Below, one piece after another: positions 1-11,826 of a DNA stretch of 30,900 bases (position 1 is the stretch's first letter; each line of letters opens with the position of its first letter). Below the pieces are notes generated by a model. It made no database searches. It had not been told where the DNA came from and saw only the letters and a list, made by a program, of their open reading frames with translations. The DNA is taken from the IMG/VR virus record IMGVR_UViG_2619619129_000008, one strand, 5' to 3'. A program made the translations under genes and the position numbers. Origin of the DNA: a virus. Taxonomy: Duplodnaviria; Heunggongvirae; Uroviricota; Caudoviricetes.

Positions 1-147
1 TCAATAAATCCCATCATTGCGATCAACCTCATCCTTAACCATTGATGCGAGCAGTTCTTCCAGTTTCTGCGCTGACAGCTTTACCTGGTGATCTTCAGCA
101 TCTTCCCGGGCTATTGTGGTTCGCGCAGTGGCTGATTTTGCTGACAT
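1..147 (-). CDS. hypothetical small acidic protein (about 47 aa from the MSAKSATARTT... start); function unknown
   Basis: Minus-strand ORF ending with TGA at 1-3 (protein ends ...VDRNDGIY); internal ATG at 145-147. Charged, helix-like composition. No convincing Shine-Dalgarno; the longer 93-aa version would overlap the upstream hairpin. Confidence 0.25.
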   Translation of the reverse strand: MSAKSATARTTIAREDAEDHQVKLSAQKLEELLASMVKDEVDRNDGIY

Positions 148-235
148 CACCACAGGGGGCAGACGGACCATTGAACCATGGCCTCCGGAACAAATAAGGG
201 CAAAAATAACAACCACTATCGAAAGCTCACAAACT

Positions 236-470
236 AACCGCAGCACGTTCCTGTATACGACGTGTCTGCGGCATAATCCCAATGATTACTCCCTGACAGG
301 ATTTGCAGGCCACTCAATATCAGGTGCAGTTGATGTATCAACACGATTCAACAATACCCGATATTTATTCCATGCCTCCAGCAACGATCTTTCTTCCTCC
401 GTTGCGATTTCCAGATCTACAGCATCCTGCAGTGGCGCAATATACTCACTGAATTCCTGGATGTAGAACT
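236..470. repeat. direct repeat copy 1: 3' end of a tfa-like gene plus downstream hairpin, similar to 1286-1520
   Basis: By eye, 236-300 (aaccgcagcacgttc...ggcataatcccaatgattactccctgacagg) matches 1286-1346 nearly base for base; similarity continues into the coding 3' ends (both encode ...[31 protein letters not shown]) and fades after ~230 bp. Confidence 0.7.
238..271 (-). terminator. imperfect GC-rich hairpin downstream of the tfa-like fragment (possible terminator or RNA-stability element)
   Basis: ccgcagcacg (238-247) pairs with cgtgtctgcgg (261-271) with one bulged base; no strong U-tract on either strand. Confidence 0.3.
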
Positions 471-555
471 GTGTGGTGACGGTCTTCCAGCCATTCGGCT
501 CCTGCTGTATCGAAGCATACCAGGCTATTTCAATATCGCTATGCTGCGGCAGCAT
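286..555 (-). CDS. tail fibre assembly protein-like ORF, C-terminal domain only (truncated tfa paralogue or remnant, 89 aa)
   Basis: C-terminal 55 residues nearly identical to the C-terminus of the full Tfa at 1335-1919; N-terminal 35 residues unrelated. Has an ATG at 553-555 preceded by AAGGGG at SD spacing. Confidence 0.5.
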
Positions 556-611
556 TTAACCCCTTGTAATTCATCGCCATAATTGATTTAATTCACAAAT
601 AAAACTATAAC

Positions 612-1280
612 ATGGTGAAATTAATGAAAAAAAACACAGATGATGGGGCTAAAATTTACACACCACTTACCCTAAAGCTTTATGACTGGTGGGTTTTGGG
701 AGTATCAAATTGGCTTGCATGGGGATGTCCTACAAAGGAACACCTTCTTCCACACTTTCTGGAACATTTAGGTAACAACCATCTGGATATTGGTGTTGGA
801 ACTGGGTTTTACCTTACTCACGTACCTGAGAGTAGTCTGATATCTTTAATGGATTTGAACGAAGCTAGCCTGAACGCGGCATCTACAAGGGCTGGGGAAT
901 CAAAAATTAAACATAAAATTAGCCATGATGTTTTTGAACCTTATCCCGCGGCGTTACATGGTCAATTTGATTCCATTTCCATGTTTTACCTTCTTCACTG
1001 CCTGCCTGGAAATATAACTACAAAAAGCTGTGTAATACGCAATGCGGCGCAGGCCTTAACTGACGATGGAACTCTATACGGAGCCACAATTCTTGGCGAT
1101 GGAGTTGTGCACAATAGCTTCGGTCAAAAACTGATGCGCATTTACAATCAGAAAGGCATCTTTTCAAACACAAAAGATTCCGAAGAAGGCTTAACACATA
1201 TACTCTCAGAGCATTTCGAGAATGTTAAAACCAAGGTTCAAGGTACTGTAGTAATGTTTTCCGCTTCAGGGAAAAAATAG
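612..1280 (+). CDS. class I SAM-dependent methyltransferase (222 aa), substrate unknown; opposite-strand moron
   Basis: Glycine-rich SAM-binding motif LDIGVGTGF about 60 aa from the N-terminus. No DPPY/NPPY (amino-MTase) or PCQ (C5-MTase) motif seen, so probably not a DNA methyltransferase. Visibly AT-rich compared with flanking phage genes. Start may be the second ATG at 624 (GGTGA at SD spacing). Confidence 0.7.
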   Translation: MVKLMKKNTDDGAKIYTPLTLKLYDWWVLGVSNWLAWGCPTKEHLLPHFLEHLGNNHLDIGVGTGFYLTHVPESSLISLMDLNEASLNAASTRAGESKIKHKISHDVFEPYPAALHGQFDSISMFYLLHCLPGNITTKSCVIRNAAQALTDDGTLYGATILGDGVVHNSFGQKLMRIYNQKGIFSNTKDSEEGLTHILSEHFENVKTKVQGTVVMFSASGKK

Positions 1281-1285
1281 CATCC

Positions 1286-1520
1286 AACCGCAGCACGTTC
1301 TTGCTTAAGACGTGCTGCGGCATAATCCCAATGATTACTCCCTGACAGGGTTCGTAGGCCACTCAATATCAGGTGCAGTTGATGTATCAACACGGTTCAG
1401 CAACACCCGATACTTTTTCCAGGCTTCCAGCAATGAGGTTTCTTCCTCCGTTGCAATTTCCAGATCTGCAGCATCCTGAAGCGGCGCAATATGCTCGCTG
1501 GCTACCTGCATCAGGCTGTT
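1286..1520. repeat. direct repeat copy 2: 3' end of tfa plus downstream hairpin
   Basis: See copy 1 (236-470). Confidence 0.7.
1288..1320. terminator. hairpin between the convergent methyltransferase gene and tfa; possible bidirectional terminator
   Basis: ccgcagcacgt (1288-1298) pairs with acgtgctgcgg (1310-1320), an 11-bp stem. Begins 8 nt after the methyltransferase stop and ends 15 nt before the tfa stop. U-tracts are weak. Confidence 0.45.
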
Positions 1521-1919
1521 TTTTGTTTCTTCCGCCTCCCGGATCCGGAACAGTTTTTCTGCTTCTGCATCTTTCACCCAGGCTGTGCCGTTCCACTTCT
1601 GAAACTCCCCTTCCGGGGATAACCAGGTGACATTTTCCGGTAATGAGCCGAGTTCAGAAATAAATAACGCATCGCCGGAAGCCACGTCATAAACCGTTTT
1701 ACCCCGATGATCTTCAACGAGATGCCACGATGCCTCATCACTGTTGAAAACAGCCACAAAGCCAGCAGGAATATCTGGTGGTGCAATATCGGTACTGTTT
1801 GCTGGCAGACCTGTATGAGGCGGAATATATGCATCACCTTCACCAATAAATTCATTAGTTCCGGCCAGCAGATTATAAATTTTTATGGTCCGTGCTTGTT
1901 CACTCATTCTGAATGCCAT
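1335..1919 (-). CDS. tfa: tail fibre assembly protein Tfa (194 aa)
   Basis: Near-identical over its length to remembered lambda Tfa ([47 protein letters not shown]...). Start codon overlaps the stf stop at 1919. Confidence 0.9.
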
Positions 1920-4900
1920 TATGCAAGCCTCACAATATAGTTAAATGCGATGTTTTTGACGGTGTTTTCCGCGTTACCAGCAGCGTTAACGGTGATGGTG
2001 TGTCCATGTGAGCCAATCGCAACCGAGTGCGTATGCGCACCAATACCTACAGTATGTGCATGTGCGCCAGAACTTGCTGCAGTACCAGACAGCGAGTGGG
2101 TATGAGCACCTGCTGACTGTGTCTGAATACGTTGATAATACGATCTACTGGAAGAAGTCCCCGGGCTTACTTGATACTGTGAATCCTTGACATAAGTGAA
2201 CCCACCGCCATCATAAAATGCTAACGCAGAACCGCCGCCTCCTGGCCAACGAATACCATTACCATGAGTATGAGCACCGGCAGACCCCGTAGAGCCACTC
2301 AGACTGTGCGTATGCGCCCCGGTGTTATTCGTGGATTTAGTGCCGTAATCAAACGACGATGTGGTTTTCGTCCCCAAATCCGTACTGGATACGCTGGCGC
2401 TGTGGGTGTGCGATTTAATGCCGTCCTGTTCCTGAGATAATACGGCTCGACCACTGGCAGGTTTGCCCTTAATCGTCCAGCCACGCATATCAGGGATCAC
2501 GCCTGACGGATAAGCGGCTGCAAGTTTTGGGTAGGCAGATTTGTCAAAAGTCTGCCCCTGCATCAGGGCATAACCAGACGGAACGGTATCTGATGGCCAC
2601 GGGATTGGTGCACCGACTGGATAAAACTCTGCAGGAGGATGAGCCGAGGTGTAAAGCTGCGCCCAACCACTTTCAAAACCATAACCGTCTCTTGAAGAAC
2701 GGTAGAACAGACCACCATTTCTGTAATGCGCCTTCATCTGCAAGGTCCGGCAACTTCCGACTCCGGTATAGAAGTTAACCAGAATATAGCTGTCGCCAGA
2801 GCGGGTGACATTGTAAGCGCCTGATTCGGCATTCCATGGAACGCCCCCATCCGCATCGGCATACGCATCCGTTGCTCTTCTGGCAAAAGCAGCCACATGC
2901 GCGGCGGTTAAAGTGATATCAGTAGAACCATCAAATGGAACACCGGATATTTTTCTTGCAGTCTGAAGTTTTGTAGCAGTTGCAGCATTACCAGTGGTGT
3001 TCTGATTACCCGTAGTGTTTACACCTGGAAGGTTAATATTTGCAGAACCGTCGAAAACAACTCCACCGATAGATCTTGCCGTCTGCAATTTCGTGGCTGT
3101 ACTTGCATTACCATTCAATGAACCAGTTAATCCACCTGTAACAGACAACGGACCTGAAACTGTTCCTCCGGTTGTTGGCAGTGCTCCAATATCTAACGGC
3201 GTCGGTTTCTGATGTGTGCTATACATCGTATAAACAACACCATCGCTAACGCTGGAAGGCTTACTCGCTGAATATGTTGGCGATGTATAAATAGAAACTG
3301 TCGCATTTGCAGTACAATCCCAATGGATATTTACACGAGTCGCATAATTGCCAATCTCAACGTAAATATCATATGTATCGCCGGATGTGTTGATCCAGGC
3401 GAAATTCGTTAATCCGACGGCTGTACGCTTCCACAAAGCCCCGGTAATTCCTTTGGGGTTTCCATTGCCTGCTCGTAGAACCAGTTCTGAAATGCCTGCC
3501 TGATGTGGGGAACCGACGTTGTAACCAGCGCCACCAATCAATGCGATGTAAACGATGGAACTCGCTTGTGGCATGGTAACCGTAGCCAGTTTGAACCACC
3601 CAGCCCCGCCAGAGAAAGACATCGTTACTGAATTTAAAGTACCAATATCTTTCGGCGTTAATGTTATATCCGCAGTCAGTGCTTTTCCGTTAACTTTTCG
3701 GTTAGATGGCACCCTGCTATTCGCATTGTCATTGGCTGCTTTAACTGCTTTTGGCGTTGCGGCCAGCGATTCACTGGTGCTATCAACAGCACTGCTAAGT
3801 TTCACAACACCTTTAGTTGTAAGGCTTGCGTCTTCCATCGCAACTGCACCGGCAATCTCTTCAGCACGATCAGCAGCAGCTTCCGCACGGGTCGCAGCGG
3901 ATTCAGCAGCAGTTTTGCTCTGAGATGCTGCCGTCGCACTGCCTGCCGCCTCTGTTGCTTTCGTGGATGCCGTCGTGGCGCTGCCCTTCGCTGCTGACGC
4001 CTGTCTGGTCGCCTCATCTTTTGAAGCAGACGCAGATGATGCCGATGACGCTGCCGAACTGGCGGACGATGCGGCTGCCGTTTTTGAGGATTCTGCACGG
4101 GTTTCCGACGCTTTCGCATTCGTTTCGGATGTCTTCGCTGCGGAAGCAGACCTCGCTGCTGCGCTGGCCTGTACAGCGGCTTCGCCAGCCTTCGTTGTGG
4201 CTGTTGAAGCGGACGATGCAGCACTTTCTGCCGATTTTCCGGCGGCGGTGGCACTGGCTGAGGCCTGCCCGGCACTTGTTGACGCGGCACTGGCAGACGA
4301 CGCAGCCGCTGTTTTTGAGCCTGCCGCAGCTGAGGCACTCTGTCCCGCTGCCGTTTCAGAAGCCTTGGCGTTCGTCTCGGACGTTTTTGCCGCCTTCGCA
4401 GAATTTGCTGTCGCCGTTGCCGAGGAAGCTGCGCTGCTGGCGCTCGAGGCTGCGCTCGTTTCTGATGATTTTGCCGCCTCTTTTGAAGCCGACGCATCCC
4501 GGGCTGAGGTGGCAGCTTCTGACGCTTTCGTGGTCGCGGTGGATGCTGAAGTGGCTGCTGATTGTTGTGACGCTGCCGCATTCGTTTCTGACGTTTTCGC
4601 GGCACTGGCACTGGTAGCTGCCGCGCTTTTTGAGGACTCTGCAGCAGCAGCACTTTTCGATGCTTCACTGGCCTTTGTTGATGCCGTTCCTGCGCTGGAA
4701 GACGCTGACTGAGCCGACGACGCGGCCTGTCCGGCTGACGTGCTGGCTGCGCGTGCTGAGCCTGCAGCATCAGTCGCATGGGTTGCCGCCTCACGGGCTG
4801 ATGTGCCGGCATCGCCGGCTGACTTCTTCGCGGCTGCCGTGTTCTGTGCCACCGCGGACGCGTTACGCGCCACCTCTTCCACCATCAGCTCAAAACGGCG

Positions 4901-5209
4901 CAGTGCCTCTGGCCGGGCATCATCCTCCGTCATGGCACCGAGAAAATCATTCAGCGTACCGGGTCGGGAGTCTTCATACACGGTGATGGTCCCGGCATGT
5001 GACGGCGGGAATCCTTCCACCAACAGAATAACGCTGTACTGACCGTACTCAACGTCCATGCTGTAACGCCCGGCTTCATCCGGGTTTTCTGAGGCCACTG
5101 TGTTCACCACCACCGTGGTGCTGTTGCGCCTGGCCTTTAGCTGAATGGTGCAGTTTTGTATCGGCTTACCTGCGCCATCTTTCAGTACACCTGAAATCCG
5201 TACTGCCAT
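1919..5209 (-). CDS. stf: side tail fibre protein Stf (1096 aa), apparently uninterrupted, with a long Ala/Ser/Thr-rich repeat region
   Basis: Single ORF. N-terminus [38 protein letters not shown]... and C-terminus ...[27 protein letters not shown] match remembered lambda Stf; central ~300 aa is low-complexity A/S/T-rich. Confidence 0.9.
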
Positions 5210-5220
5210 ATTCCCCCCAC

Positions 5221-5246
5221 AAAAAAGCCCGCCTGAACCGGCGGGC
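5221..5246 (-). terminator. intrinsic terminator downstream of lom
   Basis: GC stem gcccgcc (5227-5233) / ggcgggc (5240-5246), preceded on the plus strand by A6 (5221-5226), which gives a U-tract after the stem on the minus-strand RNA. Confidence 0.6.
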
Positions 5247-5273
5247 TGTCATAACACTGTGTTACCTGGCTAA

Positions 5274-5873
5274 TCAGAATTTATAACCGACACCAACGAT
5301 GAAACTGTTGGTACGCCAGTCACCGCTGCCGGAGCCTTCATAAGCGACGTCAACGGCCACGGATTCGGTCGGGTTAAACTGCACGCCAGCTCCCCACGCC
5401 AGAGACGTGTTGCTGTGGCGACCGTCATCACTTCCGGTCAGCACATCGTGCGTTTTCCCCTTGTTGTCAGTTACGCGGATATAATCCCCGGAGAAAGTCG
5501 ACACACGGCTGTAAGCCATACCCGCCATCGCATACGCGCTGAACCATTCATTCACGCGCACAGACGGCCCCGCCATCACGCTGAACCAGCGATTACGCAC
5601 GGAATCCTCATGCCAGCGGGTATCGCTGTAATGCGTTTTTTGCTCATCTTCAGCGTTGGCATAACTGAATGACGTAATCAGCCCCAGCGTGTCCGTAAAC
5701 TCATAACGGTATTTCACGTTAATCCCGTTCAGATTTTCGCTGCCGGGAGCGTTCGTACGGGCATGAAGATACCCTGCGCTCAGTGTGGCCTGCTGCTCAG
5801 ACGCCCATGCAGGCGCACCGGATACGGCCAGACAGATGGCTGCGGACAAAATGGCTGCACAAACTTTACGCAT
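5274..5873 (-). CDS. lom: Lom/Ail-family outer-membrane beta-barrel protein (199 aa)
   Basis: N-terminal signal peptide (MRKVCAAILSAAICLAVSGAPAWA), alternating beta-strand pattern, C-terminal ...YEGSGSGDWRTNSFIVGVGYKF as in remembered lambda Lom; positioned between J and stf as in lambda. Confidence 0.85.
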   Translation of the reverse strand: MRKVCAAILSAAICLAVSGAPAWASEQQATLSAGYLHARTNAPGSENLNGINVKYRYEFTDTLGLITSFSYANAEDEQKTHYSDTRWHEDSVRNRWFSVMAGPSVRVNEWFSAYAMAGMAYSRVSTFSGDYIRVTDNKGKTHDVLTGSDDGRHSNTSLAWGAGVQFNPTESVAVDVAYEGSGSGDWRTNSFIVGVGYKF

Positions 5874-5894
5874 AATTACCTCTCGCTTTTCTGC

Positions 5895-5920
5895 AATAAA
5901 AAAGGCGCCATTTCTGGCGC
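5895..5920 (-). terminator. intrinsic terminator downstream of J (tJ-like)
   Basis: Stem ggcgcc (5903-5908) / ggcgcc (5915-5920) with loop atttct; A-run 5897-5902 on the plus strand gives a U-tract on the minus-strand RNA. Lies 20-45 nt past the J stop. Confidence 0.6.
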
Positions 5921-5940
5921 CCGTATATGGGTTATAAAAT

Positions 5941-8900
5941 TCAGCTGATACTGATGCCTGCGGTGGCTTTCTTCATCACCACAACCAGCAAATCGCTGAT
6001 ACTTGCTGTGGGATACCAGTCATTTACCAGCCATGCTGACACCGAAAACTCCAGCGTCATGTGGCCGTGACCAGCTGGCATATCAATAACACCACTGTAA
6101 ATCAGCGTATTATCCAGCGCGGTACGGTTATAAATTTCAGCACCATTTTTCTTCACTATCAGGCGGCATGAGGAGTAAATATCAGTATGCTCTCTCTCAT
6201 GTTTAGCACCGCTGAATGCCACCGCCGGAATAACAATCTGCCGGTCAAACGGCTGATCGTCATAAATCCTGACGGTAATGGTCCCTGATGGCCACCGCTC
6301 CGGTGCCCGGGAGTCCCGCGGGAAAGCCTTACCCACTGTTTTGACAATATCGCCTTCAATCTGGTTGGCTGACAGTTTCCCTTTAATCTGACAGTTCTCA
6401 TTTATCGTAACGTTGTTGAGCGTCCCGGCGTTCGCATTCACACTGCCACTGATATCTGCATTTTTAGCGGTCAGCTTTCCGTCCGGTGTCATGGAAAATG
6501 CAGGAGGATTACCGCCGCTGGTAATGGTGGGAGCCGTCAGATATTTCAGGAACACTTCATTCATGAATATCTGATCACCCTGACCAACAAACATCGGTTT
6601 TGTGTTGCCATTCGCAGGATTAATCATCGCAATCCGGTCAGCAGCCAGAAGCACCTGACTCTGCATACCTGCTGGCGTATTCTCAATACCGGCTCCGATA
6701 CCCGCAATATAAAGGCGTCCGTCCTTCATCTGCTGCAGTTTCACGGCCCACATGCTGTTCAGGTTATTATTTGTATCAACCTGAACTTTCTGTATCTGCT
6801 GGATTGCCGCACTCTGGTCTTCCAGTTTTTTATTGACGGTCTGCGTGATTTCATTGCTGACATTCGTAATGGACGTCCTGATTTCAGCCAGGTCCGGCGC
6901 AAGCTGACCGTTATCAATCTGCGTCCACAACTCCTGGGCCAGATGTGTTTTCCCGATTTCTCCTTTGAAAAAATCCAGGTAACCTTCCGCATCATCGCTC
7001 GCCCGACCGACAGCCTCCACGAATGCCGATTTGCCAACGGTGTTCACACTGCGAACGTAAAAATAATAATCATGGCCCGGTTTGATATTGATACTGGCGG
7101 CTATCCAGTACAGCGCCGTACCAAGATAGCGGGCTGTGGTTTCAACCTGCCTGATATCCGCAATCCGCTTTTCCGAGAACCAGAACTCAAACTGTACCGT
7201 CGGATCATAAACCGCAAGATGCGGCGTGGCGGTTATCTGAAAATAGCCCGGCGTCAGCTCAATCCGCGACGGCGCTGCCGGTGCGGCAATCCGGAACGAT
7301 ACCGACGCCGGATCGCCCTGCTGCCCCCACGCATTTACTGCCCGGACTGTCAGCCTGTAGTTCCCCAGAGCCAGTTGTGTGAAGCGGTAAGTGGTTTCCG
7401 TCGTCCGGGCCGTGCTGACCAGCCGCTCACTGCCGTCATCCGCTGTTACGGTCAGGCGAAGCATGAAACTCACGCCCTTCACCACCTTCGGCGTGTCCCA
7501 GCGGGCCAGTACCTGATACTCCCCGCTGTCTGCGGTGACTTCGGCAGTCAGGTGCTGCACTGCTGGCGGCGTGACACCATTCACCGTGCCGCTCTGGTCG
7601 CCGTCAAAGTGCGCCCCGTTATCCACGATAGCTTCTTTTTCCGGTACATGCTGCACGGCGGTGATGGCATACGTGCCGTCGTCGTTCTCACGGATACTCA
7701 CGCAGCGGAACAGGCGCTGGCGCAGCGTCGGCAGCTTCAGCCCCCATACGCTGTATCCGGCAACGCCGTCAGGAACACGGCTCACTTTTACCTTCACGCC
7801 GTCGGTGACGGACTGGACCTCCACGCTGACCGGATTGCCACTTCCGTCAACCAGGCTTATCAGCGTGGTACCGGAGGATGGCAGCGTGATTTCACGGTCG
7901 AGCGTCAGCGTCCGGGTCTGGCTGTTCACCGCCAGCACGCGCCCGCCGGTGCTGATCCCCGCATAGTCATCATCGCAGATTTCAATGACATCGCCCGGCA
8001 CATGGCGAAGCCCTTCCGCACCCACGCTGAAGTCCACGGTCTGCGTTTCCAGTAGTTCCGTTTTAATCAGCCACAGCCCGGCGCGGTGCGCCTGCCCCCG
8101 GCTGGTACAGCCAAAGGCATCCATCTTCGTGACGTTACGACCGTAACGGAGAATGGCCTGCGTATCTTCAACAAGCTCTGTCGCCGTCTCCCAGCCGTTA
8201 TCCGGGTCAATCCAGTTCACCTCAACGGCATTATGACGGTCCTTCAGGGCACTGAAGCTGTAGCGGAACGGCGCGCCATCATCCGGCATCACCACATTAC
8301 TGCAGTTATAGGTCCACACCTTATCCGACGGTCGGTCCTGCACGAACGTCAGCGTCTGCCCGTTCCATACCGGCATACAGCGCATCGCCGAGCAGAAATC
8401 ACTGAGAACATCCCACGCCTTGCGCTGTGTGGTCAGCCAGGCATTACAGGTGATGCGCGGCTCCGTGCCACCAAAGCCATCCGGCACCGACTGGTCGCAA
8501 TTCTGGCCGATGACATACAGCGCCCATTTGTCCACATCCGCCGCACCGAGACGCTTCCCCATGCCGTAGCGCGGATGGGTCAGCATATCCCACAGACACC
8601 AGGCCATGTTGTTGCTGTATGCTGGCTTAAACGTTCCGTCCCAGATACCGCTGTATTGCCGCGTCTGCGGGTTATAGTTCGACGGCACCTGCAGAATGCG
8701 CCCGCGAAGATGATAATTACGGCTCACCTGCTGGCTGCCGAACTGTTCCGAGTCCACCTGCACGCCGACCAGTGCCGTGTTCGGGTAGCACTGTTTCACA
8801 TCGATGATTTCGGTGTATGACGACCAGAGCGTTTTGTTCTGCAGCTGGTCTGTGGTGCTGTCCGGCGTCATTCTGCGCATCCGGATATTAAACGGGCGCG

Positions 8901-9420
8901 GCGGCAGGTTATCCACCACCACCGAGGCCAGATACTGCGAGGTGGTTTTGCCCTTAATGGTGATGTCTTTTTCCGTCACCCAGCCACCATTACGCTGTAT
9001 CTGAACCAGCAGGCGAACTTCCGACGGATTCCGGTCCCCCTTTGAGGTGGTTTCCACCAGTGCCTGCACACCGAAGGTAAAGCGCAGTCGGTCGATGTTT
9101 GCCGACGTGATGGCGCGGGTGATCGGCGTGTCGTATTTCACTTCCGTACCCAACACCGTCTCGGAGCCGGAGGATTCAAATCCCTCCGGCGGAGTCTGCT
9201 CCTGCTCACCAGCCCGGAACACCACCGTGACACCGGCGATGTTGGTATTCCCATCACTGTCCAGCACCGGCGTACTGTTCAGCAGCACGCTTTTTAATCC
9301 ATCCACCGGACCTTCAATCGGCCCTTCACTGATGGCATCAATCACACTCAGCAACTGCGTGGACTTCAGGTTGTCCTTCGCTTCGCGCGGGGTATGCCCC
9401 TTACTGCTTCCTTTACCCAT
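5941..9420 (-). CDS. J: tail tip / host specificity protein J (1159 aa)
   Basis: N-terminal ~800 aa follow remembered lambda J almost residue for residue ([45 protein letters not shown]...); the C-terminal portion departs from it. Confidence 0.95.
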
Positions 9421-9441
9421 TCCTCACGCTCCATAAACGAC

Positions 9442-9463
9442 AAAACCGCCCGCAGGCGGTTTC
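9442..9463 (-). terminator. hairpin in the I-J intergenic gap (terminator-like or attenuator; weak)
   Basis: ccgcc (9446-9450) / ggcgg (9455-9459) with short flanking A/T runs. Confidence 0.25.
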
Positions 9464-9480
9464 ACATAAAACATTTTGCA

Positions 9481-10152
9481 TCAGCGACCAATCACCACAA
9501 CCTGACCACCGTCCCCTTCGTCTGCCGTGCTGATCTCCTGAGAAACCACGCGTGACCCCACGCGCATTTCCCCGTACAGAACAGGCAGAACATTGCCCTG
9601 GGCAACCATGTTATCCAGTGAGGAGAAATAGGTGTTCTGCTTACCGTTATCCGTTGTCTGTGTACGGGGAGTTCTGGCTTTCGGTGCCAGCATCTGCGCC
9701 ACACCACCGAGCACCATACTGGCACCGAGAGAAAACAGGATGCCGGTCATACCACCGGCCCCAATGGCTGCCCCCCATGCTGCAAGGGTGGCTCCGGCGG
9801 TAAAGAATGATCCGGCAATGGCGGCAGCCCCCAGGACAATCTGGAATACGCCACCTGACTTGGCCCCGGCGACTCTGGGAACAATATGAATCACAGCGCC
9901 ATCAGGCAGAGTCTCATGTAACTGCGCCGTTAACCCGGACGTGCTGACGTCCCGCCCGGCAATCCGTACCTGATACCAGCCGTCGCTCAGTTTCTGACGA
10001 AACGCCGGGAGCTGTGTGGCCAGTGCCCGGATGGCTTCAGCCCCCGTTTTCACACGAAGGTCGATGCGGCGACCAAATCGTTGCAAATCCCCGTAAAGGC
10101 AGATGCGCGCCATGCCCGGTGACGCCAGAGGGAGTGTGTGCGTCGCTGCCAT
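9481..10152 (-). CDS. I: tail tip assembly protein I (223 aa)
   Basis: Length and sequence as remembered for lambda gpI; overlaps the end of K by 103 nt as in lambda. Confidence 0.9.
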   Translation of the reverse strand: MAATHTLPLASPGMARICLYGDLQRFGRRIDLRVKTGAEAIRALATQLPAFRQKLSDGWYQVRIAGRDVSTSGLTAQLHETLPDGAVIHIVPRVAGAKSGGVFQIVLGAAAIAGSFFTAGATLAAWGAAIGAGGMTGILFSLGASMVLGGVAQMLAPKARTPRTQTTDNGKQNTYFSSLDNMVAQGNVLPVLYGEMRVGSRVVSQEISTADEGDGGQVVVIGR

Positions 10153-10793
10153 TTGTCGGTGTACCTCTCTCGTTTGCTCAGTTGTTCAGGAATATGGTGC
10201 AGCAGCTCGCCGTCGCCGCAGTAAATTGCGGCGTGATTCGGCACCGATGAACCAAAACAGCACAGCAGCACATCGCCCGGCTGTGCCGCTGACAACGGCA
10301 CCTGATACAGCCCCGTCGCCTCCAGATTATCCAGATAGAGATTCTGGCCGTTACGCCACCAGTCATCCTCACGATGAAAGTCCGGCATCTCAATCCCCGC
10401 CAGATGATAAGCATCCCGGAACAGTGTGTAACAGTCCGTCACACCGTGCTCAAAGCGCCGCCCGGTGAGATGCGGCACACAGCGGAACTTATGAATCGTC
10501 CCCCGGCAGACCAGCCACCACGGCAAATCACTCTGCACCTGCAGCCGCCGGTCGGCCTCACTCAGCCAGGGCAGACCACCGGGGTGGCTGTGGACCAGCG
10601 CCACAATCTCACCCTGCATTTCTGCCTGCAGCCAGTCTTCCGGCGACATACGGAAATACGCCTCCGGCTCACCGGAGATATTCACGCAGGGGAAATATCT
10701 TTCCCCCTCCGGCGTGCTTACCACGAAGCCGCACGACTCCGCTGGCGCACATCGCCGGGCGTGCGCCAGAATCGCTGATTCTGTCTGTGTCAT
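10050..10793 (-). CDS. K: tail tip assembly protein K (MPN/JAB plus NlpC/P60-like); 247-aa ORF, a shorter form could start at the internal Met near 10649
   Basis: Matches remembered lambda gpK. The JAB-type motif H-S-H-x7-S-xx-D (EIVALVHSHPGGLPWLSEAD) is present; the long ORF starts right after the L stop. Confidence 0.85.
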   Translation of the reverse strand: MTQTESAILAHARRCAPAESCGFVVSTPEGERYFPCVNISGEPEAYFRMSPEDWLQAEMQGEIVALVHSHPGGLPWLSEADRRLQVQSDLPWWLVCRGTIHKFRCVPHLTGRRFEHGVTDCYTLFRDAYHLAGIEMPDFHREDDWWRNGQNLYLDNLEATGLYQVPLSAAQPGDVLLCCFGSSVPNHAAIYCGDGELLHHIPEQLSKRERYTDKWQRRTHSLWRHRAWRASAFTGICNDLVAASTFV

Positions 10794-10798
10794 GGGAT

Positions 10799-11497
10799 TT
10801 ACTGCGAAAGTTTGTTAATGGAAAGGAAGCCGCCAAAGTTGCCGACGTTATTGCGGAACTTACAACCGCTCAGGCATTTGCTGCATTTATCCTTCGTGAT
10901 ATCGGACGTTGGCTGGTCATATTCATCCGCGACAGCCGGACCGCTATAACCGCACTCGTCACCGCGATAGGTCCAGGTGCAGGTGTTGGCCAGCATGATA
11001 CGTCCCGGAAAAACAGCGCCATCCGTTTCCGTCGGCGTGGACAGTACAAAAGAGGCACTCACCGCGCTCAGTTCGCTGCACTGCTCAATGCGCCAGCGGC
11101 TGATCACCTCCTGCTCCGGATCGGCGCCACTGTTTCCGTTGACGAAGTTCACCGCATCCAGAAAACGGGCGTAAACCTTACGCCGGACCACCGTTCCACC
11201 GACCAGACTCTGCAGATCTTCCGCCATCCCGGTGACCATACCGTACAGGTTAGAAACCGTCAGTGTGGGGCGCGTACTGGTGCCTTTGCCATTCAGTTCA
11301 AAACCACTCCCCTGAATGGGATACGGCTGATACTGTCGCCCCTGCCAGGTGACCGGCTCACCTTTTTCGTTCTGCTCATTACAGAAAAAATAACGTTCTC
11401 CACCGACCTCTGTCAGGTCGATTTCCCAGAGCACCACGCTGGCCGACTGCTCCGCACGGGTGCATTCATTCAGTGTTTCCTGCCGGATATCCTGCAT
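10799..11497 (-). CDS. L: tail tip assembly protein L (232 aa)
   Basis: Same length as remembered lambda gpL, with four Cys near the C-terminus; its start overlaps the M stop by 1 nt as in lambda. Confidence 0.9.
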   Translation of the reverse strand: MQDIRQETLNECTRAEQSASVVLWEIDLTEVGGERYFFCNEQNEKGEPVTWQGRQYQPYPIQGSGFELNGKGTSTRPTLTVSNLYGMVTGMAEDLQSLVGGTVVRRKVYARFLDAVNFVNGNSGADPEQEVISRWRIEQCSELSAVSASFVLSTPTETDGAVFPGRIMLANTCTWTYRGDECGYSGPAVADEYDQPTSDITKDKCSKCLSGCKFRNNVGNFGGFLSINKLSQ

Positions 11498-11826
11498 CAG
11501 TTCACCACCTGTTCAAACTCTGCGCTGAACTCAACACGCAGCATACTGACCCGCGACGACCATTTTGCGCAGGTCACCTTTATCTGCCGCCACTCATAAG
11601 GCGGCGTCCACAGAAAGGCTTTCCAGCCCCCGTGCTCAGCCAGAAACGACTCCAGCGCCGTGGCCTCCCAACGGGGAACAGAAAGCGTCACGCTGTACGT
11701 TTTCAGGTCGGCATTCAGCCCGGCAGGCGCTCGCTGGGAATAGCCATCACCAAAGCGCACTTTCCTGACGGAAGGGGCCGAAGCCACATCCATACCGGGT
11801 TTCACTTTCCAGCGGAAGGTCTTCAT
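11497..11826 (-). CDS. M: tail tip protein M (109 aa)
   Basis: Same length and position as lambda gpM; 4-nt overlap with the H stop. Confidence 0.9.
   Translation of the reverse strand: MKTFRWKVKPGMDVASAPSVRKVRFGDGYSQRAPAGLNADLKTYSVTLSVPRWEATALESFLAEHGGWKAFLWTPPYEWRQIKVTCAKWSSRVSMLRVEFSAEFEQVVN

Follow-up and report, generated by a model that had tools for sequence, protein, structure and literature searches.

Genes and features at the locus

The locus described here occupies positions 236 to 1,520 of a 30,900-nucleotide (nt) stretch of DNA, hereafter the window, from the Caudoviricetes virus record IMGVR_UViG_2619619129_000008. It consists of a methyltransferase gene lying between two direct repeats, beside the lambda-type tfa gene of the tail-fibre region. 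What the region carries, in intact form, is the tfa-ybcY-tfaX module, an accessory unit of lambdoid Escherichia coli prophages that is already known and is annotated in the E. coli reference genome. The cassette is real and ordinary, and it is not unusual.

Window positions 309-1773 shared 96.7% DNA identity with the tfaX-ybcY-tfaD segment of the cryptic prophage DLP12 of E. coli K-12. The methyltransferase matched phrog_2132, a family of unknown function, over the entire profile (residues 5-222 against profile positions 1-218 of 218; E 3.9e-155), and an annotation note for phage PhiR26_1 calls the gene YbcY. Both the full-length profile match and the synteny (convergent with tfa, divergent from tfaX) placed the protein in the YbcY/phrog_2132 family. 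Identical or near-identical copies of window 1-2000 were found by megablast in complete E. coli genomes. At a threshold of at least 95% identity, the methyltransferase DNA (556-1285) was present in 3836 of 5426 complete E. coli genomes (71%), with up to four copies per genome. The features of the module were as follows:

236-462: left direct repeat, made up of a hairpin (about 240-272) and the 3′ coding end of tfaX; 88% identity to 1286-1511
286-555, minus strand: tfaX-like open reading frame (ORF) of 89 amino acids (aa), a decayed second tfa-type gene (Caudo_TAP, phrog_2341)
307-345, equal to 1356-1394: 39-nt block identical in both repeats and in lambda tfa, a putative crossover zone
556-611: divergent spacer, set apart by its composition (26.8% GC)
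583-611, plus strand: predicted sigma-70 promoter, TTGATT-N17-TATAAC
624-1280, plus strand: YbcY-family class I S-adenosylmethionine (SAM)-dependent methyltransferase, 218 aa (Pfam, phrog_2132); the ORF is open from ATG 612 (222 aa)
1286-1511: right direct repeat, made up of a hairpin (about 1289-1320) and the 3′ coding end of the resident tfa (by alignment)
1335-1919, minus strand: resident tfa, lambda type, full length, 194 aa (Pfam Caudo_TAP, E 7e-45; phrog_105, E 1.7e-100)

Local alignment of the two repeats (236-462 vs 1286-1511) gave 226 aligned positions, of which 199 (88%) were identical, with one 1-nt indel. The alignment score was 312, against a maximum of 27 over 200 shuffles. An earlier interpretation made from the letters of this stretch (the sequence-only reading) had described direct repeats of about 230 bp around the cassette and had set 70% identity as the level below which that description would fail; the observed identity lay above it. 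Each repeat copy started with a hairpin, and the remainder corresponded to the 3′-terminal ~60 codons of a Tfa-type frame. In RNA folding the left hairpin had a free energy of -24.1 kcal/mol (z-score -4.05). The right hairpin, common to the convergent tfa and methyltransferase genes, folded at -28.5 kcal/mol in the tfa sense and at -24.2 kcal/mol in the methyltransferase sense (z-scores -5.0 and -5.3). The resident tfa was 93% identical in nucleotide sequence to lambda orf-194, and in lambda a compensatory change from C:G to A:T preserves the hairpin.

The phage genes of segment 1-2400 were all on the minus strand, and the methyltransferase gene was on the plus strand. GC content was 40.7% in the methyltransferase gene, 48.0% in tfa, 53.7% in the side tail fibre gene stf and 52.6% in the whole window.

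The methyltransferase

Motif I of the protein read D59-I-G-V-G-T-G65, and D59, G61, G63, T64 and G65 were invariant among 35 homologues. Pfam gathering scores were passed for Methyltransf_12 (37.5 bits; threshold 30), Methyltransf_23 (28.7; 27), Methyltransf_25 (27.8; 27) and Methyltransf_11 (24.7; 21.2). An AlphaFold2 model built from the 35 homologues had a predicted local distance difference test score of 89.9 and a predicted template modelling score of 0.87, and it showed a predicted seven-stranded Rossmann-like sheet with flanking helices and an N-terminal helical lid. Judged by its motifs and modelled fold, the protein is a class I SAM-dependent methyltransferase. The sequence-only reading, which had reported an opposite-strand, low-GC gene with a class I SAM motif, is thus borne out by the composition, the motif, the Pfam cut-offs and the fold.

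The length of 222 aa given in that reading holds for the ORF (612-1280) but probably not for the protein. All 33 aligned homologues (near-identical E. coli and Citrobacter copies left out) began at residue 5, corresponding to ATG 624. Because of these homologue starts, the 218-position PHROG profile and a -10 hexamer that ends at 611, the true start is probably ATG 624, giving a product of 218 aa.

Foldseek searches of the PDB libraries returned as top matches a bacterial phosphatidylethanolamine (PE) N-methyltransferase (8ys9), JHAMT (7ec0), NodS, the keto-acid C-methyltransferases SgvM, CysG and BelI, and phosphoethanolamine methyltransferases. The match to 8ys9 had 15-17% identity and a template modelling score of about 0.6. 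A profile search of PDB sequences gave weak matches to JHAMT (1.3e-5) and UbiG (1.3e-3). Most of the nearest relatives in sequence and structure were methyltransferases of lipids or small molecules, and none exceeded 21% identity. The protein resembles the small-molecule and lipid class I enzymes (PmtA 8ys9, JHAMT 7ec0, UbiG/UbiE/Coq5, NodS, BelI/SgvM) in its fold, helical lid, DxGxGxG motif and size; it differs from them in sharing only 12-21% identity and in scoring below the cut-offs of the NCBIfam and Pfam models.

Assignment to a curated family was equally out of reach for the sequence-only reading and for the searches made here, in which no NCBIfam or Pfam curated family model claimed the protein. 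NCBIfam searches with the window protein and ten distant relatives returned sub-threshold matches alone (CpaM, RquA, PmtA, BioC, UbiE/G, NodS). The PmtA model NF045882 gave 15.7 bits against a cut-off of 390 and the RquA model 16.9 bits against 175; the UbiE/Coq5/MenG score was likewise below cut-off. The family-invariant motifs YDWWVL, HLDIGVGTG, YLLHCLPG and YNxKGIFSN were captured by none of the curated family models searched. Invariant residues also included C39, H129 and C130.

A regular-expression scan of the protein found neither a DPPY/NPPY-type motif IV, (D/N/S)PP(Y/F/W), nor a PCQ motif, in agreement with the sequence-only reading. A single ENV occurred at residue 203, in the C-terminal strands and with no PCQ partner. 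The protein had no DNA-methyltransferase target-recognition domain and no structural similarity to such enzymes. That the substrate would be something other than DNA, as that reading proposed, accords with the closest fold relatives, most of which act on small molecules or lipids. Because of the fold and profile similarity, a small-molecule rather than a DNA substrate is most likely. The enzyme would methylate a small, probably hydrophobic molecule such as a lipid head group, a quinone or an acid-like metabolite.

Conservation and spread of the family

The ratio of nonsynonymous to synonymous substitution rates (dN/dS) was 0.09-0.12 against the Salmonella and Enterobacter homologues, for which dS was unsaturated. 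Across 35 sequences 55-98% identical to the window protein, 58 alignment columns were invariant. The methyltransferase is under purifying selection. In total, the main 222-aa cluster contained 6589 members, and truncated variants also occurred, among them a 161-aa cluster with 445 members.

A profile search of 1.84 billion representative proteins recovered 415 clusters (50% identity) at E <= 1e-30. Nearly all of these were single-domain proteins of 215-240 aa, and among the longer members no informative fused domain was found, one RCC1-repeat fusion apart. The gene was AT-rich in every context (39-48% GC). Homologues at 57-79% identity were singletons, located at Enterobacter and Salmonella chromosomal loci, in a PerC/autotransporter island and at other prophage ends, and full-length homologues were annotated in Erwinia, Yersinia and Shewanella.

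The neighbourhoods of six homologues (57-79% identity) contained no recurrent partner gene and gave no hint of a pathway. Homologues at 66-67% identity lay at prophage ends in Enterobacter asburiae (locus L013) and Salmonella enterica (loci L015-L017), where the neighbours included DinI, an Acyl_transf_3 gene, Caudo_TAP, a phage integrase, a ricin-type lectin and DUF4376. The family appears to recur as prophage cargo beyond E. coli.

A search of PADLOC-DB returned nothing below E = 0.01, the top match being mad2 (E 0.019, 11.8 bits), and the protein was not assigned to any defence family. Neither PADLOC nor the homologue neighbourhoods supported the role in surface modification, superinfection or virulence that the sequence-only reading had offered as a possibility.

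Promoter and accessory-gene character

The promoter sequence TTGATT-N17-TATAAC (583-611) occurred in one exact copy in the window and was identical to the published promoter of K-12 ybcY. In K-12 it was listed as an RpoD-holoenzyme promoter by genomic SELEX (systematic evolution of ligands by exponential enrichment) and placed in the divergent ybcY/tfaX spacer, which was flagged as H-NS-bound (PMC3946193). A second candidate promoter, TTAACC-16-CATAAT, was located at 556-583. With its own sigma-70 promoter, convergent with the late operon, the methyltransferase gene would not depend on lytic genes for its expression in the lysogen, which H-NS would probably damp. For the present strain we infer from the promoter sequence such expression from the prophage, independent of the late operon and damped by H-NS.

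The K-12 tfaX promoter proposed in the same study (PMC3946193) was considered as support for the 89-aa ORF and was rejected, since it overlaps the start codon of that ORF; it therefore argues against the 89-aa ORF as an expressed product.

In lambdoid prophages, accessory cargo is found in the region bounded by the tail-fibre genes and the attachment site. Cargo genes of the kind that Hendrix and co-workers named morons include lambda lom and bor. With its own promoter sequence, its deviant base composition, its position after the tail-fibre genes and its absence from close relatives (lambda and 20 E. coli prophages with the same flank), the region, as far as its organization can tell, works like a classical phage moron, and the sequence-only reading was right to call it moron-type cargo. 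It differs from classical morons in having no canonical terminator on its own strand, in forming a unit with a tfa remnant and in being associated with no known lysogenic-conversion phenotype.

tfaX and the origin of the repeats

The C-terminal ~55 aa of the tfaX product corresponded to the conserved Tfa C-terminus, with residues 31-86 matching Caudo_TAP model positions 75-130. The N-terminal ~37 aa showed patchy similarity alone, to Tfa residues ~32-75 (segments including LPQHS, and KTV with KTV). The protein matched phrog_2341 over its full length (E 4e-61), all full-coverage homologues were short (82-142 aa), and in the PGAP annotation the gene is a pseudogene, a partial copy of a tail fiber assembly gene. 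In K-12 DLP12 and in the phages PhiR26_1, Turner and 2G7b the methyltransferase likewise has tfaX beside it, even in a phage where no lambda-type tfa adjoins.

On these alignments and annotations, the left repeat is the 3′ part of tfaX, a separate decayed tfa-type gene, and not an insertion scar or a bare duplicate. The sequence-only reading had treated it as a copy of the tfa 3′ end; the alignment to tfa stands, but the copy is part of an ORF of its own (286-555). The same reading took the repeats as the signature of an acquisition event, a view given up here, the left repeat being a piece of tfaX that travels with the methyltransferase in K-12 and in phages.

The two repeats would then be the conserved 3′ ends and terminator-like hairpins of two tfa-type genes, the working tfa and the tfaX remnant. 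Successive replacement of tail-fibre cassettes would leave remnants 3′ of the working stf-tfa pair, and the methyltransferase would lie between the current and the previous tfa. tfaX is probably such a second-tfa remnant left by tail-fibre cassette replacement. An alternative origin is that a circular DNA carrying a tfa 3′ segment and the methyltransferase entered the resident tfa by a Campbell-type single crossover, duplicating its 3′ end. A single crossover yields exactly an insert between direct repeats, and even in 2G7b, whose tail-fibre set is different, the cassette has a tfa 3′ fragment at either end. However, the left copy runs on for 93 bases of ORF (463-555) with patchy N-terminal Tfa similarity, like an internally deleted tfa; the repeat copies differ by 12%; and a further tail-fibre-type remnant lies just beyond tfaX, which fits serial cassette replacement. 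A Campbell-type origin is therefore rather unlikely and is rated below origin by tail-fibre replacement.

In other genomes tfaX is cut by unrelated DNA at the equivalent of window position ~329 or 309 (PhiR26_1, Turner, 2G7b and K-12), both points being inside the 307-345 block. The phage versions of tfaX end in an unrelated 27-residue tail (VALGMKLFVTHV...; locus L019 3285-3587, L020 3423-3725 and L002 about 7050-7122).

Gain and loss of the cassette

A query made of the synthetic recombinant junction identified 20 genomes with an empty form of the locus: a full-length tfa adjoins the same left flank immediately, and there is no methyltransferase. A query spanning the flank, tfaX and the methyltransferase start identified the filled form in 816 genomes. 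The cassette is accordingly not universal at this position, and universal presence was what the sequence-only reading had named as grounds for its own rejection: lambda and the 20 empty E. coli prophages with an identical left flank have a single tfa. Strain JP538 was empty at ompW/yciE; in the record that matches window 1-2000 identically, this same locus is filled.

In the empty forms of JP538 and EC15, six of seven informative sites at 251-306 were of the left type. At sites 346-389 the right type was found at 10 of 10 sites in JP538 and at seven of 10 in EC15. The switch in sequence type fell between 306 and 346, that is, inside the 39-nt block (307-345), which is the longest perfectly conserved stretch. 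The structure of the empty sites is that expected from homologous recombination, either between the repeats or between the tfa alleles of two phages, and it is exactly the structure implied by the suggestion of the sequence-only reading that repeat recombination could excise the gene. Through the direct repeats and the 39-nt block, homologous recombination, within one prophage or between tfa alleles of different phages, would add or remove the cassette.

Window 331-2105 was closer to PhiR26_1 (97.8%) than to the empty forms (94-95%), which is compatible with import of the stf-tfa-methyltransferase-tfaX segment from a PhiR26_1-like donor. The switch in the empty forms (306-346) coincides with the truncation points of tfaX (309, ~329). 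This coincidence could favour acquisition, although a conserved block attracts crossovers either way.

Overall reading and alternatives for the function

Taken together, the results make it likely that the locus is an intact ybcY module with a small-molecule-type enzyme under its own promoter, accompanied by a tfaX remnant and subject to gain and loss through the repeats. Several points weigh against this reading. The strong hairpin (-24.2 kcal/mol) that starts 6 nt past the methyltransferase stop has no T-run after it on the plus strand and so does not qualify as a canonical terminator of the methyltransferase gene; the terminator scan made no call. The K-12 copy is a pseudogene with no known phenotype, and a ybcY mutant was like the wild type in the one assay found (PMC2408971). 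As to the recombination, the tfa of the empty forms was just about 95-96% identical to the window tfa, and repeat sites 406, 419, 433 and 448 were left-type in the empty forms.

Three other accounts of the function were weighed. The target of the enzyme might be a macromolecule of another kind than DNA, for example a base in tRNA or rRNA or a protein of host or phage, with conversion acting through translation or a protein target. This is unlikely, given that the sequence-level matches were all to small-molecule enzymes (JHAMT, UbiG, ToxA/XrdM, phosphoethanolamine and PE N-methyltransferases), that the weak NCBIfam matches (CpaM, RquA, PmtA, BioC, UbiE, NodS) were of the same kind, and that the 218-aa protein carries no extra RNA- or protein-binding domain. 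A DNA methyltransferase with a role in epigenetic marking, or in shielding the DNA of phage or host against restriction, would share the class I fold, and phages often carry orphan DNA methyltransferases. The absence of the motif IV and PCQ signatures and of a target-recognition domain, however, makes this account extremely improbable. The gene could also be functionless baggage, a silenced and decaying passenger that hitch-hikes with tail-fibre modules. It is a pseudogene in K-12, its spacer is flagged as H-NS-bound (PMC3946193), truncated variants such as the 161-aa cluster exist, and the adjoining tfaX and DUF4376 remnant are clearly decaying. Against this stand a dN/dS of about 0.1 with 58 invariant columns, the dominance of the intact 222-aa form and the upkeep of full-length homologues as chromosomal singletons in Enterobacter and Salmonella and their annotation in Erwinia, Yersinia and Shewanella, and we regard mere baggage as quite unlikely.

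A more specific proposal, and a decidedly improbable one, is that YbcY brings about lysogenic conversion by methylating a small molecule that is ubiquitous in Enterobacteriaceae and associated with the membrane. It would fit the tryptophan-rich N-terminal helix and the best structural match, the PE N-methyltransferase. It would also fit the place of the gene among envelope-altering cargo (lom, bor/iss, ompT) and its upkeep as a singleton across genera. If it were true, PE, for example, would be converted to methyl-PE, which E. coli normally lacks, or a quinone or fatty-acid-like acid would be methylated. Envelope or respiratory properties would then be altered, and hence phage susceptibility or host fitness.

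The discovery value of the locus is small, in that the module is annotated in the reference genome and is found in most E. coli strains. Two points are of modest value. One is that a strongly conserved methyltransferase is carried both by viable lambdoid phages and by ~70% of complete genomes of E. coli, while literature searches found no functional study of ybcY or tfaX. K-12 is a natural null, which makes gain-of-function metabolomics or lipidomics easy. The other is that the locus is a clean example of conserved tfa 3′ ends acting as a handle for recombination, by which tail-fibre cassettes and their accompanying cargo are reshuffled.

Neighbouring sequences and the wider prophage

Beyond the module, the following features were recorded:

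1-235, minus strand: DUF4376/tail-fibre-type pseudogene remnant of the left flank (a DUF4376 pseudogene with an internal stop in the record identical over 1-2000)
4-147, minus strand: 48-aa ORF in the left flank, matching phrog_7703 and phrog_1141 (tail fiber protein)
1919-5209, minus strand: side tail fibre gene stf, 1096 aa (from the ORF list; prophage tail fiber in the matching record)
1378-1576, minus strand: match to Rfam IS009 (RF02111), 224.7 bits against a gathering score of 117
329-532, minus strand: sub-threshold IS009 match in the left copy, 112.5 bits against the same gathering score

The DUF4376 fragment (1-235) and tfaX form a row of tail-fibre-module remnants 3′ of the working tfa. 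The IS009 model, listed as a small RNA (sRNA) gene, was matched over its full length by the right repeat region on the tfa sense strand. The matched sequence in the window differs from such a gene in being protein-coding (the tfa 3′ end), with no separate sRNA gene shown. What IS009 describes seems to be conserved coding sequence of tfa and not an RNA gene in its own right, and an sRNA function is doubtful. The matching RefSeq record also contains a 45-aa 'hypothetical protein' (WP_001309429.1; 1225-1362, minus strand). Its ORF shares sequence with the 3′ end of the methyltransferase gene, with the hairpin and with the stop codon of tfa, and in all likelihood the call is spurious.

The C-terminal part of stf (2027-2320 and 3800-4900, minus strand) contained repeated GAHTHS-type His-x-His motifs, which showed in the DNA as the repeat family GTGCGTATGCGCACC in four copies. 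That part also had a long Ala/Ser-rich repetitive segment with 59-67% GC, well above the window average. Three CspA-family cold-shock ORFs of 70, 71 and 70 aa were located in the early/lysis part of the prophage at 26812-27197 (minus strand), 29708-30100 (minus strand) and 30240-30452 (plus strand). Two of the three had full-length matches to the Rfam cspA thermoregulator (112.8 and 158.8 bits).

Only over its first 9.7 kb or so (1-9726) was the window collinear (98.8%) with a prophage that E. coli PRO_A-1443 carries integrated at ompW. Past ~9.7 kb the two were mosaic, sharing short patches of 87-93% identity at 9953-11501, 27909-28452 and 28551-28874. The tail-fibre/cargo end is collinear and the remainder is mosaic; the two parts therefore have different histories.

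Comparison with known systems

Lambda has a single tfa followed by the hairpin and then ea47, and it has no methyltransferase. The phages PhiR26_1, Turner and 2G7b share with the window the divergent tfaX/methyltransferase pair, 98-99% identical to window 331-1320, with the tail-fibre genes on one side of it and the attachment-site end of the genome on the other. The order in these phages is tfaX, YbcY, then an alpha/beta hydrolase, OmpT and the integrase, so that an ompT/hydrolase module stands where the window has the DUF4376 remnant. Their tfaX also differs in ending in unrelated sequence from the window-equivalent of ~329, and Turner and 2G7b have no full lambda-type tfa directly beside the methyltransferase.

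The tfaD-ybcY-tfaX segment of DLP12 (K-12 b0561-b0563) contains the same three elements in the same order and orientation, with the same ybcY promoter. K-12 ybcY is a frameshifted pseudogene, whereas the methyltransferase of the window is intact. In K-12, unrelated DNA that leads to appY-ompT interrupts tfaX at the equivalent of window position 309; the tfaX of the window, unlike that of K-12, retains the complete Tfa C-terminus and the hairpin.

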